A stretch of 64,000 nucleotides of DNA from the IMG/VR virus record IMGVR_UViG_3300013902_000267; one strand, written 5' to 3'. The translations under genes and the position numbers were made by a program. A model generated the notes under the pieces. It ran no database searches, had not been told where the DNA came from, and saw only the letters and a program-made list of their open reading frames with translations. Below, piece after piece: positions 7,599 through 62,266 of the stretch (its first letter is position 1; each line of letters opens with the position of its first letter). This stretch comes from a virus. Its lineage: Duplodnaviria > Heunggongvirae > Uroviricota > Caudoviricetes.

Positions 7599-8109
7599 TA
7601 TAAACATATTACCCGGTGCAAAATTTGAATGTACAATATATAAAGGCAACGGACATTATGAAAGTTCATATGGAACTATTATGAAATGCAATGATAGATT
7701 AGTATTAATGTTGTGTGGACTTTTGTTTTTTGGATATGACTATCATTCTTGGAATAGTATTCATACTTATAATAAAAAACATTATCTGTATTATAATTAT
7801 TATAAGAATGATAACGATAGTATGAAAATAAAAGGTATTGTATGGTATTTAGATTTTGAAAAATATCCAGATAATTTTGGATTGTCTCCAAAATTATTTG
7901 TTGTTACTGATATATGGTTTAATAATATACATATATATAAAAGTAATTATATGTTGAAGAAATACAAACCAAGTTTAAAACCAAATTATATACATGAAGC
8001 AAATGAAAATTGTAAATGTTTTAAATATTGCGGTGGTAGTGTATATTCATCGGAAAAGTTAGAGGAATATGCAGAAGTAATACCTAATAAAAATTATAAT
8101 TATGAATAA
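7549..8109 (+). CDS. hypothetical protein
   Basis: Track ORF of 186 aa; the true start may be a downstream ATG. Confidence 0.45.
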   Translation: MQGMKYKLTIDDTNIININILPGAKFECTIYKGNGHYESSYGTIMKCNDRLVLMLCGLLFFGYDYHSWNSIHTYNKKHYLYYNYYKNDNDSMKIKGIVWYLDFEKYPDNFGLSPKLFVVTDIWFNNIHIYKSNYMLKKYKPSLKPNYIHEANENCKCFKYCGGSVYSSEKLEEYAEVIPNKNYNYE

Positions 8110-9580
8110 TATTAAAGAAAATAATTTTTTCATTCCTAGAAAAATTGCTGTAGGATTTGTAAAAAGAGCAAATACATATTCAGGAAAGTTATCTTATATT
8201 ACTTATTATGATAATACTAATAAATTACGTAAGGACGTATCTTGGAATGGTTGGAGAGATAAAAATATAGAACCTGTATATACGGATAATATTCCAACAA
8301 CAGGTTTTATTATTAATAAACGTGCAGGAGGCGAAAAATGGGGATGGAACCAAAGAGCAACATATGCGCGTATATATGATCCAAGAGGGTTTGAATTTGA
8401 GATAACTATAGATAATCTTCTTTGGATTCTGGAATATACTAATTCAGAAAACAAGGAATTAAAAGGACAATTTGTATATAGTTGGTATGGAACTGAACTT
8501 GTACTTATGCCTATTGTTTCATCTGATTATGAAGAATCTAAACGTTTATCTGAACAACAATATAATAAAACATCGTTTAAAGAACGCGATTTAATTCCTG
8601 GAACACTTTATAAAATGAAAGGTAAGGAATTAAATGAATTGGTATATATTGGTAAAGTAAAAGTATCTACTGAATTCAATATGTCTTATGTTAATAAATT
8701 AGCATTTGTACCTATACAGGATTCTTGGAAGTTATATTCACATTATGATAAAAATATCAACAGATCTGATTTCTTTATATTTAAAAGTGTTTCGTCTGTT
8801 ATAGCAGAAATGCAACAAAATTATTTTAGTGACGATATTGTAAAAGAATATCTACATAGATTTGATATGTGCGCGTATTCATATAATTTCTGGAATAATT
8901 TTGGTAATTTCATTGATAAATTTGTTTCTGACCATCCATGTATAATGAATGATTATAAAAAACCATATAAGATAGAATATAATAGATATAGCACAGAGAA
9001 GAATAATTATAATAATATTATTGATAAATTCGAATATAATGGTATAAAGTTAGATTCATTAAGAATTATTCCTGAATGGTTAATCCAAACAGACAGAGAA
9101 CACATATTTTATGAAAATACAAGTGTATTAAAATCAGTTATATCCGATGATGGTAAATCCGTATTGATAAAAGATCAATATCCTACTATAGAAAAGATTA
9201 ATACATTTAATAGGATTGTATATAAACGAATGTATGATTTCATGAATATTGATTTAAATACAAATACATTTAATAAAATATGTGATCCCGGATTGTGGGA
9301 TGAATATAGAGGTCATCATTCTTGCGAAGTATCAAATATTATATATAAGCATCCATCAGAAACTACAGATGTTCAGAAAGCAAGAGAAATTAATACTCAG
9401 GTTTCATTAAATGATAACAGAACATTCTTATATTATATAACGAAGGATAATTATATATCTATATCATTACAGGAAATGATACGGAATCATCGTTATATGA
9501 AATTCGGTTTCTCGAATGGTATAGATGAGAATAAATGGGTAACATTAGATGTAATATTGTTACCAAAAAAGATTAAGTAA
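8102..9580 (+). CDS. hypothetical protein (492 aa)
   Basis: Track ORF; long open frame. Confidence 0.55.
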   Translation: MNNIKENNFFIPRKIAVGFVKRANTYSGKLSYITYYDNTNKLRKDVSWNGWRDKNIEPVYTDNIPTTGFIINKRAGGEKWGWNQRATYARIYDPRGFEFEITIDNLLWILEYTNSENKELKGQFVYSWYGTELVLMPIVSSDYEESKRLSEQQYNKTSFKERDLIPGTLYKMKGKELNELVYIGKVKVSTEFNMSYVNKLAFVPIQDSWKLYSHYDKNINRSDFFIFKSVSSVIAEMQQNYFSDDIVKEYLHRFDMCAYSYNFWNNFGNFIDKFVSDHPCIMNDYKKPYKIEYNRYSTEKNNYNNIIDKFEYNGIKLDSLRIIPEWLIQTDREHIFYENTSVLKSVISDDGKSVLIKDQYPTIEKINTFNRIVYKRMYDFMNIDLNTNTFNKICDPGLWDEYRGHHSCEVSNIIYKHPSETTDVQKAREINTQVSLNDNRTFLYYITKDNYISISLQEMIRNHRYMKFGFSNGIDENKWVTLDVILLPKKIK

Positions 9581-10269: not shown

Positions 10270-10863
10270 ATGCCAACAATGATGCCATTAATGGATAAAG
10301 ATACCGTAAGATATATAACATAGAATATTACACCAGAAGAAACTAAATATGTAGCTGATATAAAATCTACTATTGATGATACAAAGTGTGAACCAGAGAA
10401 ATGTGATGATGTTATATATCTTACTAAGATTATCGCTTTTTATACTAAATTTACAAATCTTGCAAATACAACACCTAATAATCAATATAAGATGCATATT
10501 CAAGATTTTATGTGGAGATTACAGCAATATAAGGAAGATATATTTGAAGTTGTTCAATCTATCATAGGAGTTTTAAATGGTTCCGATATTACAAAGATTG
10601 AATTACCTATAAGTGATAATCCATTAGAGATTATAAATGAATTAAAACAATGTGTACAAAATTGGTTTACACTTCATACAGATGATATTGAATATGAAGG
10701 CGCTAGATCATTAACTAGTTCATTCCTTTCTGTAATTCATAAGTTTGTTTACCTTTTTAGATTAGATAAATGCTCGACTGCTGATTATGGTCAGGATTAG
10801 AAATTACCAAATCCTGATGCAGGATTATGTGGAGTAAACGGAGCATATGCAGTAAATTTTTAA
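10270..10863 (+). CDS. late-module hypothetical protein (2 in-frame TAG)
   Basis: ATG upstream is in frame with track ORF 10492-10800. Only TAG interrupts the frame and it ends at TAA. Confidence 0.55.
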
Positions 10864-10874
10864 TATGATATAAT

Positions 10875-11828
10875 ATGAATCCTATAAATCAACCATCATC
10901 TAGAAATTACAATATCAATGGTAGTACAAGAAATAATGGGTTCTTATATAAAATTATGCCTTTATCATTTAATTTACAATAGAGAGGAAATGATTTTAAA
11001 GTTAAAAAATACAATAAGTGTAAATTTAATATCGGCGATAATGTAAGAGGATTGTGTTTGGAAGATAAGAAAGAACATTCAGGACGAATTACTAATATCT
11101 TATACAGTACAAATACAGAAGTTCCTTATTTAGTTTATATCATTGATAATAAGACAAGATAGAAATTATCATTAAACTTTAGTTCGCTAGAATTTAATAA
11201 TTCTAAAATTGATGAGTCATATGGGTTTGATGTTGCCATTAAACTATATGAAACATTAAATAAAGATAAATATAATAAATTAAAACTTTAGAATAGAATG
11301 GTAAATTCAATAAAAGTTTTACTTGAAGAATATTTTAATAATACAGAACAAATGGATATGTTGTTAAATGATTATTAGAAACAACAGAAAAAAGCAAGTA
11401 AAGCATATGATTCACGTCAAGAGTTTTTAAAATCAATATTAGGTAAAGTAACATATAACAAATATCAAAATAAAGGTATGTTTGCTCCTATTCCTTTATC
11501 TGCATTGCATTTAACATTCGAAGATTTTTATTATTTGTTTCCAGAGAATAATATTAAGATGAGACCAATGGATAATGAAGCAGGTGTAGAGAAAGTAAAG
11601 AAACTTATTGCACGTATTAATAAGGAATATCCTAATAACGGTATTAGATTGTTAGATAATGGTGTTTCTTATACATTAAGTTCAAATCTTGTATTTAAGA
11701 GATTAGATAATATAATTGATTTTTTATAGATAATTCAGAAAAATGTTTTGAGGATTTCATCTGATAAAACAAATCCAACAGTTAATTGGAAGGCGATGAT
11801 AAAGAAATTCAGAAATTATCTACGATAA
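10875..11828 (+). CDS. late-module hypothetical protein (about 6 in-frame TAG)
   Basis: ATG 10875 is in frame with track ORF 11478-11729 (603 nt apart). All intervening stops are TAG and the frame ends at TAA 11826-11828. Confidence 0.65.
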
Positions 11829-11861
11829 TCAAATAAGTAAAATAAATTAATTAAAATAATA

Positions 11862-12365
11862 ATGATGATAACTACAAACATAAGTAACATTCCAGACGCA
11901 TGGGATGGTTATTTTGAACAATAGGTTAATAAGTTCACGCCTTCTGTTGAAGTTCCTAAGCCTTGGAGACATCCGGTTGGACCTGAACCTATGATGAAAC
12001 CTTGCAAGCATCATAAGACATAGTTTATTATAAAACATAAACCTGCTACATTACCAAATGGACCAGAACATGGATGTAACGTATGTGATCCATATCATCC
12101 AAATTTGTATGATCATATGAATATGCCTTGTTTTAATCAACATAAACCATATGGTATCGCTACTAATAGATTAATGAGTCCATTTGAAGATGATGATAGA
12201 CCTGATTGGCATGAATTCCATGCTAAGAATCGTAAACCTATGATGTTTGAAGAAGTTATAGATGAAAATGGTTGTTCACATGGTCCTCATGGAACAATTA
12301 ATGTTAGACCAGTTGAACCTGCTGATGATGAAGCAGATGAGATTGAAGATGAAGTAACAGTTTAA
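11862..12365 (+). CDS. His/Cys-containing protein with acidic tail (2 in-frame TAG)
   Basis: ATG 11862 is in frame with track ORF 12105-12365; CKHHK, GCNVCDPYHP and GCSHGPHG motifs. Confidence 0.65.
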
Positions 12366-12398
12366 AATGAAAATTAATTAATGATAGAAATATAAATT

Positions 12399-13166
12399 AT
12401 GCAAACATCAAGTAAAGTTTCATACGATAATTGGAGTGATTGGAATTTAGGAAATTAGATAATGAATATAAGACCTGTTGGTACATATTGCTTCTGTGAA
12501 CATCATCATTGTCACCATCATCATCCTTGTGATTGTGTAGATTGTGAATTCTCAGAATCATATATTAAACCAGAATCTTGTTGTCATCATCATCCGCATC
12601 CACCAGTACCATGTCCACCACATCATTGTGATTGTCATGATCCACATTTATTTCCAATTGATCAAGATAATGATGGATTTGTAGAAAGTGATATGATTCA
12701 TAAACATCCAGAACCATATATTCCAGAACCATTACCAGGAGAAATTGGAGATAAAGAAGATGATACAACAAATAGAATGGAAGTAGGTGACGAAGTTGAT
12801 GATATTGATGATTCAACAAATTATTATGGTTCAAATTTAGTTGTAAGTATTCCTAAAGAAATTCAACCAGTAGAAACATCAGATGAAATTGATTCTATTT
12901 TAGATGAAGATACACAAGATGATATGGTAACTACTGATGAAGATGGTTATCATACATTAAGTGATGAAGTTCCAGCAGAAGAAGATAATTGGGAAACATC
13001 AAAAATGATTGATACTAATACATCTAAAATTATTGAAGAAACACCAGTTCCTGAATAGGAATTAAAGGAAGTTGAAACTATTCCATCTGTAGAATCAGTA
13101 GAAGAGAAACCCACACGTGGACGTAGAAGAGTTAATCGTGGAGGAAGACGTAAAAAAGAAGAATAA
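12399..13166 (+). CDS. His/Cys-rich putative metal-binding protein (2 in-frame TAG)
   Basis: ATG 12399 is in frame with track ORF 12462-13058. CFCEHHHCHHHHPCDCVDC...CCHHHPHPPVPCPPHHCDCHDPH; reads through TAG 13056 to TAA 13164-13166. Confidence 0.65.
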
Positions 13167-13188
13167 TTTTTATTCTATATATAATAGA

Positions 13189-13226
13189 AAAGAGACTTAG
13201 AACAAAAATACTAAGTCTCTTTTTAT
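13189..13226. terminator. bidirectional terminator between convergent genes
   Basis: AAAGAGACTTAG / CTAAGTCTCTTT hairpin flanked by A and T runs. Confidence 0.6.
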
Positions 13227-13262
13227 TTTTTATAAACATTCACATTTAATTTTACTATAAAA

Positions 13263-13889
13263 TTAAAGCATACATTCATCCCACCAGTCAGCGCGGAAAG
13301 TCATATCACAAGACATCAAATCTGTACTGTCATAATTAAGTGTAGGACCAGGTACACCTGTTGTAGGGAAAATGTAATAGAATACCCATTGCCAATATGG
13401 ATTACCAGCACGATCTTGCATAGTAATAGTCATTGATGGCGCCACGTAATCTTTCTTAAGGCCTTCACGACCTGTAAGAGGATCATAAATAAGGTCAACC
13501 CATTCACGAAGGAACTTATATGTGTAGTTCTCAGGTGAACCGTTATCATATGAAAGGTTAAGGTTAAAGTGTAATGTCAAGTCGACATTAGTTCTATCTG
13601 GTTTTGCACCAGCGAATGAACGTTGTGCAAATTTATACTTTTGCTCTGTTGCGTTAGCACCAAATGAAGTAGAAATCTGACCAACACTTTGTACACCTTC
13701 AAGAATAATATTCAAACGTTCATCATCTGTTGTATCAACCATACCTTGAGGACAACTTAATTGAACAGTAAACAAGTTCAAATATATAGGTTCCCATAAT
13801 GAGGTAGATACACGGCTATTTCTAAAATGTGATAATCCTAACAAACCTGGAGATTTCTTAGGTAAAGTAGGTCCATTTGTTACTGCCAT
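13263..13889 (-). CDS. tail tube protein (T4 gp19-like)
   Basis: IYLNLFTVQL near the N-terminus and a MTFRADWWDE C-terminus recall T4 gp19 PNLFQVEI ... TLALDYWE. TAG-free and visibly higher GC than its neighbours. Confidence 0.6.
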   Translation of the reverse strand: MAVTNGPTLPKKSPGLLGLSHFRNSRVSTSLWEPIYLNLFTVQLSCPQGMVDTTDDERLNIILEGVQSVGQISTSFGANATEQKYKFAQRSFAGAKPDRTNVDLTLHFNLNLSYDNGSPENYTYKFLREWVDLIYDPLTGREGLKKDYVAPSMTITMQDRAGNPYWQWVFYYIFPTTGVPGPTLNYDSTDLMSCDMTFRADWWDECML

Positions 13890-14042
13890 ATTATTATTAA
13901 AGTATATTTTATTTTATTTATCTGTGAAAAATAGGTAGATTAAATGTAGACAAAAATATTTTTTTATAGTATAAATTAAGAATTTAAAAAAAATAGAGAT
14001 AAATAATTAAGTTCAAAAAATAAATTTTAAATAAAGAAGAAA

Positions 14043-14216
14043 ATGAAGAAGATTTTATTTGTACTTGCTGCTGTTGTAACAATGAGTTTCGCTTCTTGTG
14101 GTAACAAGACTACTACATGTGGAACAGCAAATGATTCAACTGCAACAGATACTACAGTTGTTGATTCTACAGCTACAGATTCAACTGCAGCTGATTCTAC
14201 AGTTTGTCCTATGTAA
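14043..14216 (+). CDS. small lipoprotein with DSTA repeats (57 aa)
   Basis: MKKILFVLAAVVTMSFASC signal peptide plus lipobox, then a repeated (T/A)DSTA(T/A) motif. Below the track cutoff. Confidence 0.55.
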   Translation: MKKILFVLAAVVTMSFASCGNKTTTCGTANDSTATDTTVVDSTATDSTAADSTVCPM

Positions 14217-14389
14217 TTCATAAGACAAACTTTATTTTAGAGAAGATTATTGTGTAATTAAAATATAACCTAATATAAGGTTTATATTAAACTAATTTTA
14301 GAGATATACTAAATATATTCATTTATATTTGGTATATCTTTTTTTATTTAATAAATATTTAAAATTTATTTAACTGAATTATATAATAT

Positions 14390-15286
14390 ATGGCAACATG
14401 GAATCAAGCAGTTCAATAGATGGGTAAGTTTTATCAATAGAATATACATACATATCAAGGAGGTAAATCAGGACATGCGACAGGTGCTAGACGTTCTTAT
14501 TCATGTCCTTTAGTTGGACACAGTGTAGGAGATGATTGTTCAGGATTTACTTCTGCGTGTTTATAGTTATTTGGAGCATTTCCAGGCTCATATATTGTTT
14601 CATCTAGTGGTTTTGCATCAACATCTGGTGCAACAGCCGCATATTTAAGAAAAGCTGGATTTTCACCGTTAAGATATATTAGTTACTCATCTTTATAGCC
14701 ATATGATATTGTTGCAAGAAATGGACATGTTGAAGTATTTTGTGGTATGAAGGGAAGTTCACCAATGTCATACGCATGGGGAAATATTCATGATGGCATA
14801 AATGGACATGTTGGTATGCCATGTTGGTTTTCTAAACAGTCTTATTCTATTGTATGGAGAAATTCTGGTGTAAGTATAGATACACCATTAGATTTTTCTT
14901 CAGTGTCTGGCGGTTCATTACAACAATAGATGAATTCTGGATATGGTACAGGTGGAACATTAAATGGGTAGACAGGTTCATAGTTTAATTATACATCAAA
15001 TACATATCCTGTTCATGATGAATATGAAACTATTTCATCTGGTAATGGTTCAAAATCTGTATTTGAAATTGTAGGTGAAAATACATTACGTATGGCATAT
15101 ACAAATTCATCATATATACAACAATTAGATTCATCTAATTATTAGTTAAAAAATACTCGTATATATTCAACTAATGATGCATCTATAATATTAGATGAAT
15201 TATCAATACCATTAGATCCATTTGATACGAGTGTTAATACATTAGATTCAAGTGTTATTGATAATTCAGTTAAAACAAATAATTAA
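14390..15286 (+). CDS. NlpC/P60-type cell-wall peptidase (about 8 in-frame TAG)
   Basis: ATG 14390 is in frame with track ORF 14747-14929. DCSGFTSACL (Cys nucleophile) and NGHVEVF (His); ends TAA 15284-15286. Confidence 0.7.
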
Positions 15287-15292
15287 TAATAT

Positions 15293-16333
15293 ATGGCTGG
15301 CAAGAAATTACTTAATGGTGTTTATATAACAAAGAAAATAATGGAAGCTTTTAATCTTAAAGATTATCAGGCTGCTGGATTTGCTGGTTGTTTTATGGAA
15401 GAATCTGGTTGTGATCCCGGTGCATATAATGCCGCTGAAAAATCTGGAAGATTTAAAGGTTCATCAGCGAACGGTGCAGGTTATGGTGCAGGTCTTGCAT
15501 AGTGGTCTAATGCATGGAAACGGTAGATATAGAGATAGTTTAATAATTCAAGGCCTATAGAAAATTGGACATTAGATTAGCAAATAGCTATTGTTACTAA
15601 AGGCTGTTCATAGTCTTTTGTAAATTTATTAAGAAAATGTACATCAGTAGGTTAGTCTACAGATATTGTTTTAAGAGGATATGAAAATGGTTCTGCAGGT
15701 AAAGGTACTAAATTACGTTCATAGCAATCAATGAAAGCATATACGTGGTGTAAGACATCATATATGGCAGATGGTAGTAGACGTACGTTTAGTGATGGAT
15801 ATATTGGTGCATTAACATGTAGAACATCATGGGCTAATGCAGTTTTAAGTAAAATGGGATCAGTTAATCTTGCAGATTTATCCGGATTAGGAACAGAAGT
15901 AGGTGGAGGATTAGGTGATGATGGCTCTTTTGGTTCTACTGGTGGAGGAGGAACTGGAGATTCAAACGCATATCCTGTTCATGATGAATATGAAACATTT
16001 ACTGGACAAGGTGGAAATATATTTGCAAATGCAAAAGATAATGCATTTCAATTAGCTGCTGATGCATCAAAATCTAAATTTTCATCTAAAGATTCTGAAG
16101 CATCTAAGCATACACGTATATATTCTACAAATGATTCTTGTATTGTTTTAGATGAATTAAGTATACCATATGATCCAAATGATCCAACTATTGAATATGC
16201 AAATCAAAATGTAAAAGCGGAAGATGTTAAGAAAGATACATCTACTAATGCAAAAGATAATACTAAAGACACATCTACAAATAAAAGTACAAATAAATCT
16301 AATACTACAAAAAAGACAACTAAATCTAAATAA
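15293..16333 (+). CDS. lysozyme-like (phage tail lysozyme-type) peptidoglycan hydrolase (about 8 in-frame TAG)
   Basis: Track ORFs 15293-15502 and 15731-16333 are co-framed (438 nt apart) and joined only by TAGs. AAGFAGCFMEESGCDPGAYN ... GYGAGLA-TAG-WS motif. Confidence 0.7.
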
Positions 16334-16335
16334 TT

Positions 16336-19300
16336 ATGATTACAATAAATGGTATTAAATATTTAAAAAAAGGAGAGACATCAAATGATAAAACAATAAC
16401 GCATTATTATTATACAGATTCATTAAAGAAAACTTATAACATAATATATAATGGCAAAAATGCTAAATTATATACAGATACTAAAGTATACAAGGATTCT
16501 GATACAAATTAGATTATAAAGAAAGATTTCTTTAATTATACTATTGATTACGGAACAGGAAAATATGGAGGTGTTTGTTATTCAAAATCAGATGAAGATA
16601 AGATATTAGGTATGGTCGATTCTGATAGTAATATAGATGGAAGTTCTAATGGAGATTCTACAACTGATGGTGATAATAGTTCAAACTCTGGAAATAATTC
16701 TGATGATTCTGATAATAATGACGGTAATAGTTCAAATAATGGTAATGGAACAGGTGATGATACAAATGATTCTGATAGTAATGGATCTGGTAATAAAGAT
16801 ACTAATAATAAAGGTATATTTGAGGATTCAATGGGTAATAAAGATAAAGATAATCCTCGAAGTTCATTACCATTAGGAGCAGATATTAAAGATCCTGATG
16901 TTACAGGTTTTAGCATTGATGAAGTAACAGCGCCACATCCACGAGAAAACAATTGGTATAATAAAGGTTCTGTTTGTCCAATAATACGTATAAATGATCA
17001 TTATTTTTCTGATACTGAAATATAGCATTTTTCTATGGAAACTGGATATTATAAGAATTTTTATGATTATCAAGTATACCAAGCACCGTTAACAGGTGTT
17101 TTACCAACTATGAGGCTTATTGTTACAACAACAGATCCAGGTTTATTAAAGAAAGATTTTATAAAGCAAGGTGATAGATGTAATGTATTTTTCTAGAGTA
17201 ATCATTCTATGATTAAATCTATGAGATGTGATTTCAGAATTACTAATGTTGTAACAGATTAGTTAGATTAGACGTAGTATTAGAAATATCAAACATAGAT
17301 TATAACAGGTGAACTTTATGTCCCGGATTTAAGAAATGAAGAAACTCGTTATAATTTTAATGGTTCATCAAGAGATGCTATGATGGATTTGGCAAAGAGA
17401 TTAAGATTAAGTTTTTTCTTTTGTGATCCTGATGATACTAATGATAAAATGGTTTGGTGTAATTGTAAAACACCTGAAATGTTCATTCATGATTTAACAA
17501 CGCATGCATGGAAAAATTCTATATCATTCTTTGAATCTTGGATTGATCCACGTTATGGATTATCTTTTATGAATATTAATAGATTATTAGGTGAAGATGG
17601 ATTTGATGAATCAATAGATATGACATTCTGGACTAATACATTTATTAATAATAGATCAGTTGATGGAAAATCTGCAAATGAAACAGATACAGAATAGAAA
17701 AATAGTACACATATTCAAACAAAATGTTTTACTAATATTATTAATGATAATGAATCTGCTACAGTATATCATGTTAATAGTTGGAGATTGGTTAATAATG
17801 CATAGGAAATACAAGATTTTGTTGGATTGAATTGTAAAATGCAATATTCATCTGTTAATCCTGGATTATTATCAGATGAGAATAATAATCCAAATTATAG
17901 TGTAGAATTTTCATTATGTTTAAATAGAACTAAATTTGATCCAACTAAAAAGGATAATGATTTTTATGTATTATTAGGACCTGGTAGAAATATGACATAT
18001 GCGAGTGGCGATGCCGCCATGGGAACATCTGAAACACAATCTTCAAATAAAAATGAACCTGAACAAGTTACAAATCAAATGTCTGATGGTGATGCAGATG
18101 CAATGGATAGTACAGGAAATAATATGATGTCTTCTGGTAATACACATCAATTTTATGAAGTTGCTTATGAACATAATATGAGAAATTTACTATAGTTATA
18201 GAAATAGTATTTACTTGTAGAATTAAATGGTGCAAACTTAAGTATTGTTCGCGGTGAAAAAATGCCTATTGTATTAATGGATTTAAATAAAGCAGAACAA
18301 GCTATTAGAACTAGTCAAGCACGTACAAAAATAGAAGAATGTATGTATGAAGCTGAATCCGGTTGGTATATAATTGATGGTATTGAATGGGTTTTTGATC
18401 CTGATAATGATTAGGGACAAGGTACAAACTGGCGAACTAATGTGAAATTAGTTAGAAGAGAATGGCCAATACCATCAAAAATAAAAGATGCAAATGGTAA
18501 TACTGTTTCAAAAAATGTCGCAAATAGTATTGTTTTGGTAGATATTGGAAACGGACAATAGATAAGAATGGCTTATTATGATGCAGTAAAGAAATATAGT
18601 TAGGAAATAAAAAATGGTGATGTCAAAATATTAGGTGGAACAACATCTGAAGACGCAGTTGTAATTGGTCAGAAAAAACAAAACATATCTTCAACTAATG
18701 ATGAATAGAATTCAGATGATCTAGAAGAAAGTGGTAAATTATATACTGCAAATGGTGTAGAGACTGTAAGTGCAGTTAATTTTAATCTTGATTTAATGGA
18801 TCAATATGTAAAAGATTCTGATTATGTTGGTTAGTCTACAATACCTTTAACTGGTTTGAAAGATTTTATGAAAAATATTTATAAAACAATATTATCTGAA
18901 TCCGATAATAAATGTAAATTGGTATCTGGAAGACGGTGGGCAGTAGATGAATATGGTAATAAGGTAAATGGAAATGCGTTTGTAAAGAAATATGATTATT
19001 ATAAATGTATGAATGCTATAGGTGAAGTAATGTATTTTAAAAAAAATAATTCAAGTCATTTATATGGTGAAGCTATTGATATTATTAATAATGGTATAGA
19101 TTTTACTGAACTTATGACTAATGTAATAATGAAATCACCTGCGATATTAAAATTATTTTATGATAATGGTGTTTCTGCTTATATAGAGCAAGCAAAGGAT
19201 GATACAGGCGCAACTACTAAACATTACCATATTGGAACTGATACAATAAAACAACGAGAATTTTGGGAATCTGTTAAAGCTATATTAGGTTCTGATATGA

Positions 19301-19425
19301 TTCCAGGAACTATGATAACATTTATGAACTATATGACAAAAAATACATAGAGAACAACAGAATTCTCTGTAAGTAGTGAAATAGACGAAAACACATTACA
19401 AAAAAATAGTAATAATGATAAATGA
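16336..19425 (+). CDS. large tail/baseplate-associated protein with C-terminal M15-type peptidase (about 19 in-frame TAG)
   Basis: Track ORFs 16612-17025, 17380-17697, 17827-18195 and 18856-19350 all share the frame of ATG 16336. N/D/S/G-rich low-complexity region; SSHLYGEAIDI...HYHIGTD zinc-peptidase motif; ends TGA 19423-19425. Confidence 0.7.
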
Positions 19426-19467: not shown

Positions 19468-20433
19468 TTAAATATGTTTTCTTTTTAATATTTGAATAAA
19501 TTCATCTTCAGTTATTTGAGCACCTGCTGCACCTTCATGTCCTCCACCATGATAATATTCTTGAAGATATTTACCACAATGGAATTCATGTGTATCTGTA
19601 GGATTATACAATGAAATTGCCCACATACCATCAGGTAATCTCTTAAATACAATACCGTTTTTGATTTTATCTTTACATGTTTTAAATATCTGTGAATTTG
19701 TTGGTTTCTGAATAAACAAAGCACATGCAGATCGATTATCAAATCCTACAGTCCATGTAAAATCACCATATGAATTAATGAGGTTCTTATTGTTTCTATC
19801 AATAATCTCTGATTCTAACTTACCTAATTCTTTAAGTTTCCCTAGTTCACATGCTAATTCTTCTGGTTTTGCTTGATATATTATATAATATACATGATTA
19901 ATAATTTCACTTACATTTAAATCATATTTATTATTAACACCAATGTTTACATATCTACAAAAATCAAAATTAATATTCTCCGCATCATAACTCCAGCTAT
20001 CCCATGCAGACAATACTTTAAACAAATCCGGTATTCTTCCAATAAAATTATACAAATAGCTAAAAGCATTATATAATGCAGAATGATCGATTGTCCTTAA
20101 ACCCTGAATATCGTCAAAATGTAATTCTTTTGAACTATTAATCATAGGCGCATGATGGTCAAACCAATATAGTTTATCACCAAAATGTTTTTTCAGTTTA
20201 AGCATTGTTTCTGCTGTATCAAACGAAATATCTGATATATAAACATAATCATATACACCTATAATATCATTTTGAATATTTAAGTTCTCCATCCCATTAT
20301 AATCTTCACCTAATAGTGTGATCATATTTGGATGTATTCCTTTTTCAATTACAAGAAAATTATATATGATAGCCATCGAAAATAAACCATCATTATCTTC
20401 CTTGTGATATATAATTAAATATTTGTCATCCAT
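19468..20433 (-). CDS. DHH/DHHA1 phosphoesterase (NrnA-like)
   Basis: HKEDNDGLFS, DISFD, WFDHHAP and GGGHEGAAG motifs. Confidence 0.75.
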   Translation of the reverse strand: MDDKYLIIYHKEDNDGLFSMAIIYNFLVIEKGIHPNMITLLGEDYNGMENLNIQNDIIGVYDYVYISDISFDTAETMLKLKKHFGDKLYWFDHHAPMINSSKELHFDDIQGLRTIDHSALYNAFSYLYNFIGRIPDLFKVLSAWDSWSYDAENINFDFCRYVNIGVNNKYDLNVSEIINHVYYIIYQAKPEELACELGKLKELGKLESEIIDRNNKNLINSYGDFTWTVGFDNRSACALFIQKPTNSQIFKTCKDKIKNGIVFKRLPDGMWAISLYNPTDTHEFHCGKYLQEYYHGGGHEGAAGAQITEDEFIQILKRKHI

Positions 20434-62187: not shown

Positions 62188-62193
62188 ATATAG

Positions 62194-62266
62194 CAGGCCT
62201 GATGAGATTCGAACTCACAACAACATGATTAAAATTCGTGTGCTCTACCAATTGAGCTACAGGCCC
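62194..62266 (-). tRNA. tRNA-Lys (anticodon UUU)
   Basis: GGGCCTG acceptor, GCTC-AATTGGTA-GAGC D arm, anticodon loop ATTTTAA, and T arm GTGAG-TTCGAAT-CTCAT. Confidence 0.85.

Follow-up and report, generated by a model that had tools for sequence, protein, structure and literature searches.

A shared C-terminal module on adjacent predicted cell-wall hydrolases of Lak megaphages as a possible tag for loading enzymes onto the tail hub

Background

Two adjacent genes of a tailed phage (Caudoviricetes; IMG/VR record IMGVR_UViG_3300013902_000267), at positions 14390-16333 of the 64,000 nucleotides of DNA that were analysed as a whole and are here called the window, raise the question of what a C-terminal module is for when it is shared by two predicted cell-wall hydrolases whose catalytic heads differ. 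Lysins that are part of the virion are well known, as are fusions of hub proteins with hydrolases. In phage T4 the gp27 hub trimer carries gp5, a spike protein with an inserted lysozyme domain that digests murein as the tail penetrates; an OB-fold domain and a triple beta-helix hold this insert. Diffocin CD1368, the hub of Staphylococcus phage phi812 (with its Peptidase C51 domain), Tal gp59 of 80alpha and gp16 of NF5 are cases of covalent fusion. Some cargo effectors of type VI secretion systems (T6SS) that ride on VgrG are marked by shared MIX-type motifs, and payloads of eCIS/PVC machines carry disordered packing signals. A transferable tag on separate hub-adjacent enzymes was found neither in the Lak-phage papers nor in the phiKZ structural atlas, nor was one found there for hub-hydrolase systems; g1, g2 and g3, the genes described below, likewise go unmentioned in these papers.

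Results and discussion

Identity of the phage, genetic code and gene layout

The window belongs to the Prevotella megaphage Lak-B: from base 13000 to base 20000 it shows 100% identity with Prevotella phage Lak-B4/B7/B8, against approximately 81% with Lak-A and Lak-C. The Lak records, of approximately 550 kb, were assembled from gut metagenomes and are unannotated. Lak phages use genetic code 15, in which TAG encodes glutamine, and Devoto et al. place their structural genes in TAG-rich regions (PMC6784885); a tail sheath is also encoded by Lak phages (PMC8346664). Both genes of interest (g1 and g2) are fragmented under the standard code and are open only if TAG is a sense codon, all in-frame stops being TAG (8 in g1 and 8 in g2). 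Standard-code ORF calls, which break both genes, were therefore rejected in favour of translation with TAG as glutamine, which restores them. Position 14390 is then the first base of the ATG of g1 and position 16333 the final base of the stop codon of g2, and the translation contains exactly the peptides quoted in the original prediction. The genes g1, g2 and g3 follow one another on the plus strand, downstream of two smaller genes:

13263..13889, minus strand: gp19-family tail-tube-like protein, 208 aa (PHROG and weak Pfam matches)
14043..14216, plus strand: small predicted lipoprotein, 57 aa (signal peptide and ..FASC lipobox-like site)
14390..15286, plus strand: g1, 298 aa (translated with TAG as Gln)
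15293..16333, plus strand: g2, 346 aa (translated with TAG as Gln; PF18013 match)
16336..19425, plus strand: g3, 1029 aa, the proposed partner (hub fold by structure model)

The richest genes of the window in TAG are g1, g2 and g3 (2.7, 2.3 and 1.8 per 100 codons, respectively). The product of the divergently transcribed gene at 13263..13889 matches phrog_45, a tail tube family (E=3e-11), phrog_32623 (E=7e-23) and, weakly, Pfam Phage_T4_gp19; this gp19-family protein is a candidate tube initiator, and its predicted identity marks the neighbourhood as one of tail and baseplate genes. A tail role for g1, g2 and g3 is supported by their TAG richness, by the adjacent gp19-like tube gene and by the tail sheath of Lak phages. 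An opposite-strand gene of approximately 210 aa occupies the position of the gp19-like gene in two other loci (L003 and L041), a likeness of place and length.

A conserved module joined to unrelated heads

Comparison of g1 with g2 by BLASTP gives one significant alignment (g1 aa 204-297 with g2 aa 225-315; 38 of 94 residues identical, or 40%, with 60% positives; E=1e-17) and none outside this C-terminal stretch, so that the original prediction of adjacent hydrolases with distinct heads and a paralogous C-terminal module holds on formal alignment. Recent whole-gene duplication was rejected as the source of the similarity, the heads being unrelated. The two blocks that had been noticed by eye, YPVHDEYET and RIYSTND..I.LDELSIP on either side of a variable stretch, are both present in each protein:

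14999..15229, plus strand: module in g1, aa 204-280 (BLASTP E=1e-17; HMM match 1e-55)
15005-15031, plus strand: block 1 of g1, YPVHDEYET (BLASTP alignment)
15155-15211, plus strand: block 2 of g1, TRIYSTNDASIILDELSIP (conservation)
15965..16192, plus strand: module in g2, aa 225-300 (alignments and conservation)
15971-15997, plus strand: block 1 of g2, YPVHDEYET (alignments)
16112-16168, plus strand: block 2 of g2, TRIYSTNDSCIVLDELSIP (alignments)

The plan of the module is block 1 (YPVHDEYET, then G..GNIF), a variable spacer and block 2 (TRIYSTND..I.LDELSIP); the fuller motifs read YPVHxEYxT-x-G-x-GGNIF and HTRIYSTND-x-x-I-x-LDELS-IP, and the universal core is HTRIY-x5-6-I-x-LDELS-IP. Distant members keep only block 2 in full (KHTRIY-x5-6-[IV]-x-[LV]-D-E-[LM]-S), with block 1 shrunk to Y-[EQ]-T-F-x-S-I-Y. 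Across relatives the conservation of both blocks equals or exceeds that of the catalytic cores, and no other 15-residue window in the g1 family is as conserved as block 2 (0.83). Because the similarity is retained in the Lak-A and Lak-C orthologues and in remoter relatives, it is not due to chance.

Modules within one genome can be more alike than they are to orthologues elsewhere (76% between A and C of L004; 60-66% in L023), which would be expected if the tags follow a common partner and equally if tandem copies undergo gene conversion. In a contig of 511 bp (P0008) a g2-type head is joined with a module of the g1 type; it was set aside as evidence of recombination because the junction lies in YPVHDEYET, where the Lak-B paralogues are identical at 26 of 27 nucleotides, and it may be an assembly chimera.

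The catalytic heads

The lysozyme-like label originally given to g2 is upheld by Pfam. Its layout is a Phage_lysozyme2 muramidase-type head (aa 12-150), a Gly-rich linker (approximately aa 196-224), the shared module and a basic low-complexity tail of K, T, S and N (aa 311-346; nt 16223-16330). The head matches PF18013 at E=7.3e-13, covering positions 6-137 of the 140 in the model and scoring 49.3 bits where 28.2 would pass the curated Pfam threshold. Relatives match the family as well, and the PHROG match is a tape-measure protein; PF18013 is a family of phage tail lysozymes.

The NlpC/P60-type label given to g1 draws on sub-threshold Pfam matches and a D-C...H pattern. The protein consists of a putative papain-like (NlpC/P60-like) head (approximately aa 1-180), a Gly/Gln-rich linker and the shared module. 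Its head scores 15-16 bits against ELLD (PF25309), for which the Pfam cut-off is 27 (E=0.01-0.02); Amidase_6 appears, also sub-threshold, in three of nine relatives (E=0.001), and a profile search of PDB with the g1 head gave no match. Despite these sub-threshold scores, the invariance of the D-C...H pattern makes the head plausibly a papain-like amidase: D49-C50, H113 and E115 are the same in all 9 g1 homologues (40-76% identity), and these would be its catalytic residues.

Is the module a folded domain?

Searches with the module recovered no known family. The C-terminal parts of g1 and g2 have no Pfam match at E<=1, LysM, SH3b and PG_binding_1 included; there is no PHROG family match; and the module profile gave chance matches only among PDB sequences, one to a nanobody (E=0.03) being rejected as such. 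AlphaFold2 modelling of aa 216-317 of g2 from an alignment of 23 sequences, which is shallow and may itself lower the confidence, yields a mean pLDDT of 58, a pTM of 0.26, one short helix and no strands, and Foldseek found no match for this low-confidence model, a negative that says little about the fold and is no proof of disorder. The module is therefore probably not a folded domain, a part of the original prediction that the model does not bear out; it would instead be a set of conserved linear motifs, and an unstructured prediction without known fold or family fits a peptide that becomes ordered on a partner.

These results bear on the alternative that the module binds peptidoglycan or the envelope and holds the heads on their substrate, its linkage to the hub described below merely reflecting that these are tail lysins. 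The position of the module, C-terminal to catalytic domains as in many modular lysins, and the basic low-complexity tails that follow it speak for wall binding, but LysM, SH3, PG_binding and all other Pfam and PDB families are missing at E<=1, and a globular fold, such as wall-binding domains have, is made less likely by the low-confidence model taken together with the build of the module, a pair of short invariant motifs whose spacer varies freely. We regard this alternative as quite improbable.

A gp27-like hub next to, or fused with, the module

Sequence methods did not identify g3, and a profile search recovered 52 homologues, most of them full-length. The AlphaFold2 model built from these 52 homologues comprises a confident beta domain (aa 1-95), a disordered linker rich in D, N, S and G (aa 98-205), a moderately confident core (aa 210-720) and a confident C-terminal region (aa 800-1000). 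In Foldseek g3 matches 1k28_D (E=1.5e-10), the core (approximately aa 210-720) being gp27/VgrG-like, and g3 is, according to this model, a gp27-like baseplate hub. Its C-terminal domain (approximately aa 840-1000), which carries S-x-H-x-x-G-x-A-x-D ... H-x-H, is a predicted peptidase of the LAS type (Hedgehog/DD-peptidase fold; Peptidase M15). Homology of the tag with part of the hub was rejected, since the best hhalign match between the module and g3 profiles, to a hairpin at aa 796-811 (LEESGKLYTANGVETV), is not significant (E=0.58).

The module is linked to the hub in 36 of 36 hub-homologue loci, the genes that carry it ending within 17 nt upstream of the hub gene in 33 and being fused to it in 3; most of these loci were ascertained through the module, and the seven lineages retrieved through distant hub homologues alone have the same arrangement in every case (7/7). 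The fusions (P0063-P0066 and P0129) consist of a T4-type lysozyme, a Gly-rich linker, the module core (HTRIYKYSEASIKLDELSLP), a low-complexity linker and the hub core, and four fragments (P0073, P0075, P0096 and P0128) run from the module core into the start of the hub core. In the fusions head and module stand in place of the N-terminal beta domain of Lak g3, on a similarly long flexible linker. Because the parts occur both fused and as separate proteins, the separate enzymes and the hub are likely to act in one complex. Gene order and fusions point to the g3 hub as the partner, in the sense of functional linkage rather than of contact through the tag itself.

We consider it fairly probable that the module serves as a loading tag, through which interchangeable peptidoglycan hydrolases are brought to the tail hub. 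Recruitment to the hub complex is the simplest account of the tag because it is the sole element common to the separate enzymes and their most constrained one. That the fusions keep the module between their lysozyme and the hub core is compatible with wall binding, but wall binding alone would leave the separate hub-adjacent enzymes without an element for incorporation into the virion. The tag is kept in fusions though the head is already tethered, and its role may therefore exceed attachment and extend to trimerisation, subunit contact or wall binding.

Distribution of the module and exchange of heads

Among 50,697 deposited phage genomes the module occurs in the Lak records alone, in exactly two copies each, and scans of metagenomes and viromes added approximately 30 loci. 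The module genes number two per locus in Lak-A, Lak-B and Lak-C, three adjacent ones in more divergent Lak-like contigs and one in one lineage; the order of the second and third varies by lineage. Three unrelated head families occur in the Lak-like loci: the g1-like amidase, Phage_lysozyme2 and a Tae4-like amidase. The last, present in L003, L004, L005, L011, L023 and L041 and absent from Lak-A, Lak-B and Lak-C, was recognized when a profile of 8 relatives matched PDB 4hz9 (E=1.7e-11), with C29 and H102 invariant.

When 1.84 billion cluster representatives were searched exhaustively with HMMER, 61 matches to the module were returned, approximately 50 of them credible; this search was more productive than word-indexed protein searches, which gave 15 and 22 matches, mostly fragments cut at TAG codons. 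In all credible matches the module is C-terminal to a head, the additional heads being a T4-type lysozyme (PF00959) and a few unclassified ones. In total, at least four unrelated head types carry the module in related uncultivated huge phages. The original idea of a docking module for different heads is thus supported, indirectly, by this variety and by hub adjacency and hub fusions. Searches of INPHARED by tblastn, with the module of Lak, a lysozyme-plus-tag protein from a distant relative and a distant hub as queries, found no cultured phage with the module: they matched Lak MAGs, a single uncultured record and, through the head alone, ordinary endolysins. Judged by these searches, the tag occurs only in huge phages that have not been cultivated.

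The number of tagged genes also bears on a possible role of the module in oligomerisation, in which three tags, belonging to one enzyme or to different ones, would intertwine as a trimeric beta structure at the hub axis, so that the enzymes form a central spike or plug and contact with the hub is secondary, by analogy with the C-terminal helix of gp5. A gp27-like hub has three-fold symmetry, many relatives have exactly three tagged enzymes, a chain that folds only on oligomerising would be expected to look unstructured as a monomer model, and a tag kept in cis-fusions would be present in three copies per hub trimer. Against this, the number of tagged genes varies (one, two or three), and the module, with a conserved core of approximately 20 residues, lacks the repeat pattern of a triple beta-helix. 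Oligomerisation as the primary role of the module therefore seems unlikely to us.

The upstream lipoprotein

The small predicted lipoprotein that precedes g1 has acidic (T/A)VVDS-type repeats and zero TAG codons, and it may belong to the hydrolase cluster: homologues lie at the same position directly upstream of the hydrolases in Lak-A and Lak-C, L003, L004, L005, L041 and the distant L039 and L044. The conserved position of this gene could be read as part of a lysis cassette in which g1 and g2 are endolysins released late, their shared tail has a regulatory or export-related role and the lipoprotein is spanin-like, and the T4-type lysozyme heads of distant relatives do resemble annotated endolysins of cultured phages. 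Inspection of the g1 and g2 translations, however, reveals no holin-like or membrane-anchor segment; g2 belongs to the PF18013 tail-lysozyme family and matches a tape-measure protein in PHROG; and hub fusions would place head and tag in the virion. Taken together with the strict placement of these genes beside the hub gene, the tail-lysozyme match and the fusions make a lysis cassette the least likely explanation and, in our judgement, a very improbable one.

Proposed mechanism of loading and comparison with known systems

Under the preferred reading, that of a loading tag, g1 and g2 would be peptidoglycan hydrolases carried at the tail tip of the virion of a contractile-tailed megaphage, and both would consist of a catalytic head and a C-terminal tag of approximately 75-95 residues, joined by a flexible Gly-rich linker. 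During baseplate assembly the tag would bring the enzymes to the trimeric gp27-like hub (g3) or to the hub complex, with block 2, probably a beta-hairpin, becoming ordered upon binding. Contraction of the sheath would drive the hub complex through the outer membrane into the periplasm, where the Gly-rich linker would give the heads reach to the murein. The predicted cargo of the hub complex comprises a muramidase, one or two papain-like amidases and a metallopeptidase, whose joint action would open the murein locally for the tail tube.

A bolder and rather doubtful extension is that the tag is a portable loading signal, such that any enzyme ending in HTRIY...LDELS-IP is recruited to the three-fold hub. 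Up to three hydrolases (a muramidase and two amidases) would then occupy three equivalent sites beside the hub peptidase to form a mixed murein-cutting tip, the heads having been swapped repeatedly by recombination at the tag, and the upstream lipoprotein would be a periplasmic immunity or superinfection-exclusion factor.

The proposed device resembles that of T4 in its gp27-fold hub with a lysozyme, in the local digestion of murein to be expected during contraction-driven penetration, and in the T4-type lysozyme (PF00959) that serves as the head in distant relatives. Unlike gp5, the tagged enzymes are separate small proteins without OB fold or beta-helix: the PF18013 match of g2 begins so near the N-terminus (aa 12) that no OB domain could precede it, and the region after the head is short, predicted to be unstructured and free of beta-helix repeats. 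Also unlike T4, there are two or three different enzymes with a short tag predicted to be disordered, and the hub itself carries a predicted peptidase. By analogy, T6SS and eCIS machines likewise combine diverse cargo enzymes that bear a short conserved or disordered element with the VgrG/gp27-type hub of a contractile machine, and one family of tagged heads is homologous to the T6SS effector Tae4. The tag nevertheless has no sequence relationship to MIX or eCIS signals and is C-terminal here, and a phage tail differs from T6SS in that its cargo acts on the cell being entered rather than on a competitor.

Conclusions

Tail-borne murein hydrolases are expected biology; the new elements are a transferable tag common to several enzymes, the set of multiple enzymes itself and the recognition of the hub protein of Lak phages. 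The confinement of the tag to uncultivated huge phages limits near-term work to recombinant proteins. If the proposal is correct, a peptide of approximately 20-90 residues may be a handle for placing foreign cargo on contractile tails, and functions would be assigned to three previously unannotated Lak genes, the baseplate hub included. It would also explain how the tail tip of a megaphage gains a set of enzymes directed against different bonds of the murein.

Baseplate hub and its variants

The gene directly downstream of the tagged lysozyme gene (16336-19425, + strand) encodes the Lak baseplate hub, in which a gp27-like core is extended by an N-terminal beta domain and a disordered, D/N/S/G-rich linker of ~108 residues, and which ends in a putative LAS-type peptidase domain (SxHxxGxAxD...HxH). 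Among distant homologues, the place of the hub's additions is taken by an N-terminal T4-type lysozyme in P0063-P0066 and by an N-terminal coiled coil in P0050; P0061 carries an additional, C-terminal Peptidase_M15_3 domain. Residues 796-811 of the hub (18721-18768) form a predicted beta-hairpin, LEESGKLYTANGVETV, similar in form to the core of the tag shared by the two hydrolases, HTRIYSTNDSCIV; profile-profile comparison of the two was not significant (E=0.58).

In P0008 (short metagenomic contig from ENA, 511 bp), a module of the type found in the putative amidase is joined onto the C-terminus of a lysozyme of the window's type, with the junction inside YPVHDEYET, where the Lak-B paralogues (15005-15031 versus 15971-15997) are identical at 26 of 27 nucleotides; P0008 arose by recombination of one tag paralogue with the other, or else it is a chimera made during assembly. 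In a close Lak-like variant, L042 (positions 1-700 of a 3152 bp contig, Logan ERR4058315), only the terminal portion of the Phage_lysozyme2 head is present, followed by the module, which runs straight into the hub core; the hub lacks the N-terminal beta domain, and stop codons lie upstream. A deletion or a fusion could account for L042, as could misassembly.

TAG usage and neighbouring genes

TAG-containing genes are concentrated at 10270-19425, and most others in the window have no or very few TAG codons. Cumulative GC skew (1-64000) peaks at ~20,000, reaches its minimum at ~62,000 and follows the change of coding strand. No TAG-suppressor tRNA was found within the 64,000 nucleotides.

Genes and tRNAs outside the hub cluster
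33-104, tRNA-Gln(CTG)
8102-9580, +, 492-aa protein, strong phrog_2475 match (E=2e-62)
12399-13166, +, 255-aa protein, His/Cys/Pro-rich N-terminal part
13263-13889, -, gp19-family tail-tube-like gene, divergent from the hub cluster
62193-62266, tRNA-Lys(TTT)

The 492-aa protein gene, just ahead of the TAG-using block, has no TAG codons, and phrog_2475 is a phage family of unknown function. The tail-tube-like gene also has none, despite its place inside this late block. The 255-aa protein, also kept in Lak-A and Lak-C, matches no family. Its N-terminal part is exceptionally rich in His, Cys and Pro (CFCEHHHCHHHHPCDCVDCEF...CCHHHPHPPVPCPPHHCDCHDPH), its middle is acidic and its end (RGRRRVNRGGRRKK) is basic. 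The protein looks metal-binding.

Small predicted lipoprotein upstream of the hydrolases

Directly 5' of the tagged hydrolase genes lies a gene for a small predicted lipoprotein that is kept even in distant T4-like loci; its product carries acidic (T/A)VVDS-type repeats, and the copy in the window contains no TAG codons.

Small predicted lipoprotein (57-64 aa across loci; signal peptide, ..[FT][AV][SA]C site)
Window, 14043-14216, +
Counterparts in related clusters:
L001, 4070-4243
L003, 1079-1255
L005, 9295-9489
L041, 2424-2615
L039, 4926-5102
L044, 1259-1435

This protein may act in the periplasm against tail lysins, as an immunity or superinfection-exclusion factor comparable to T4 Spackle; alternatively, it may be a spanin.
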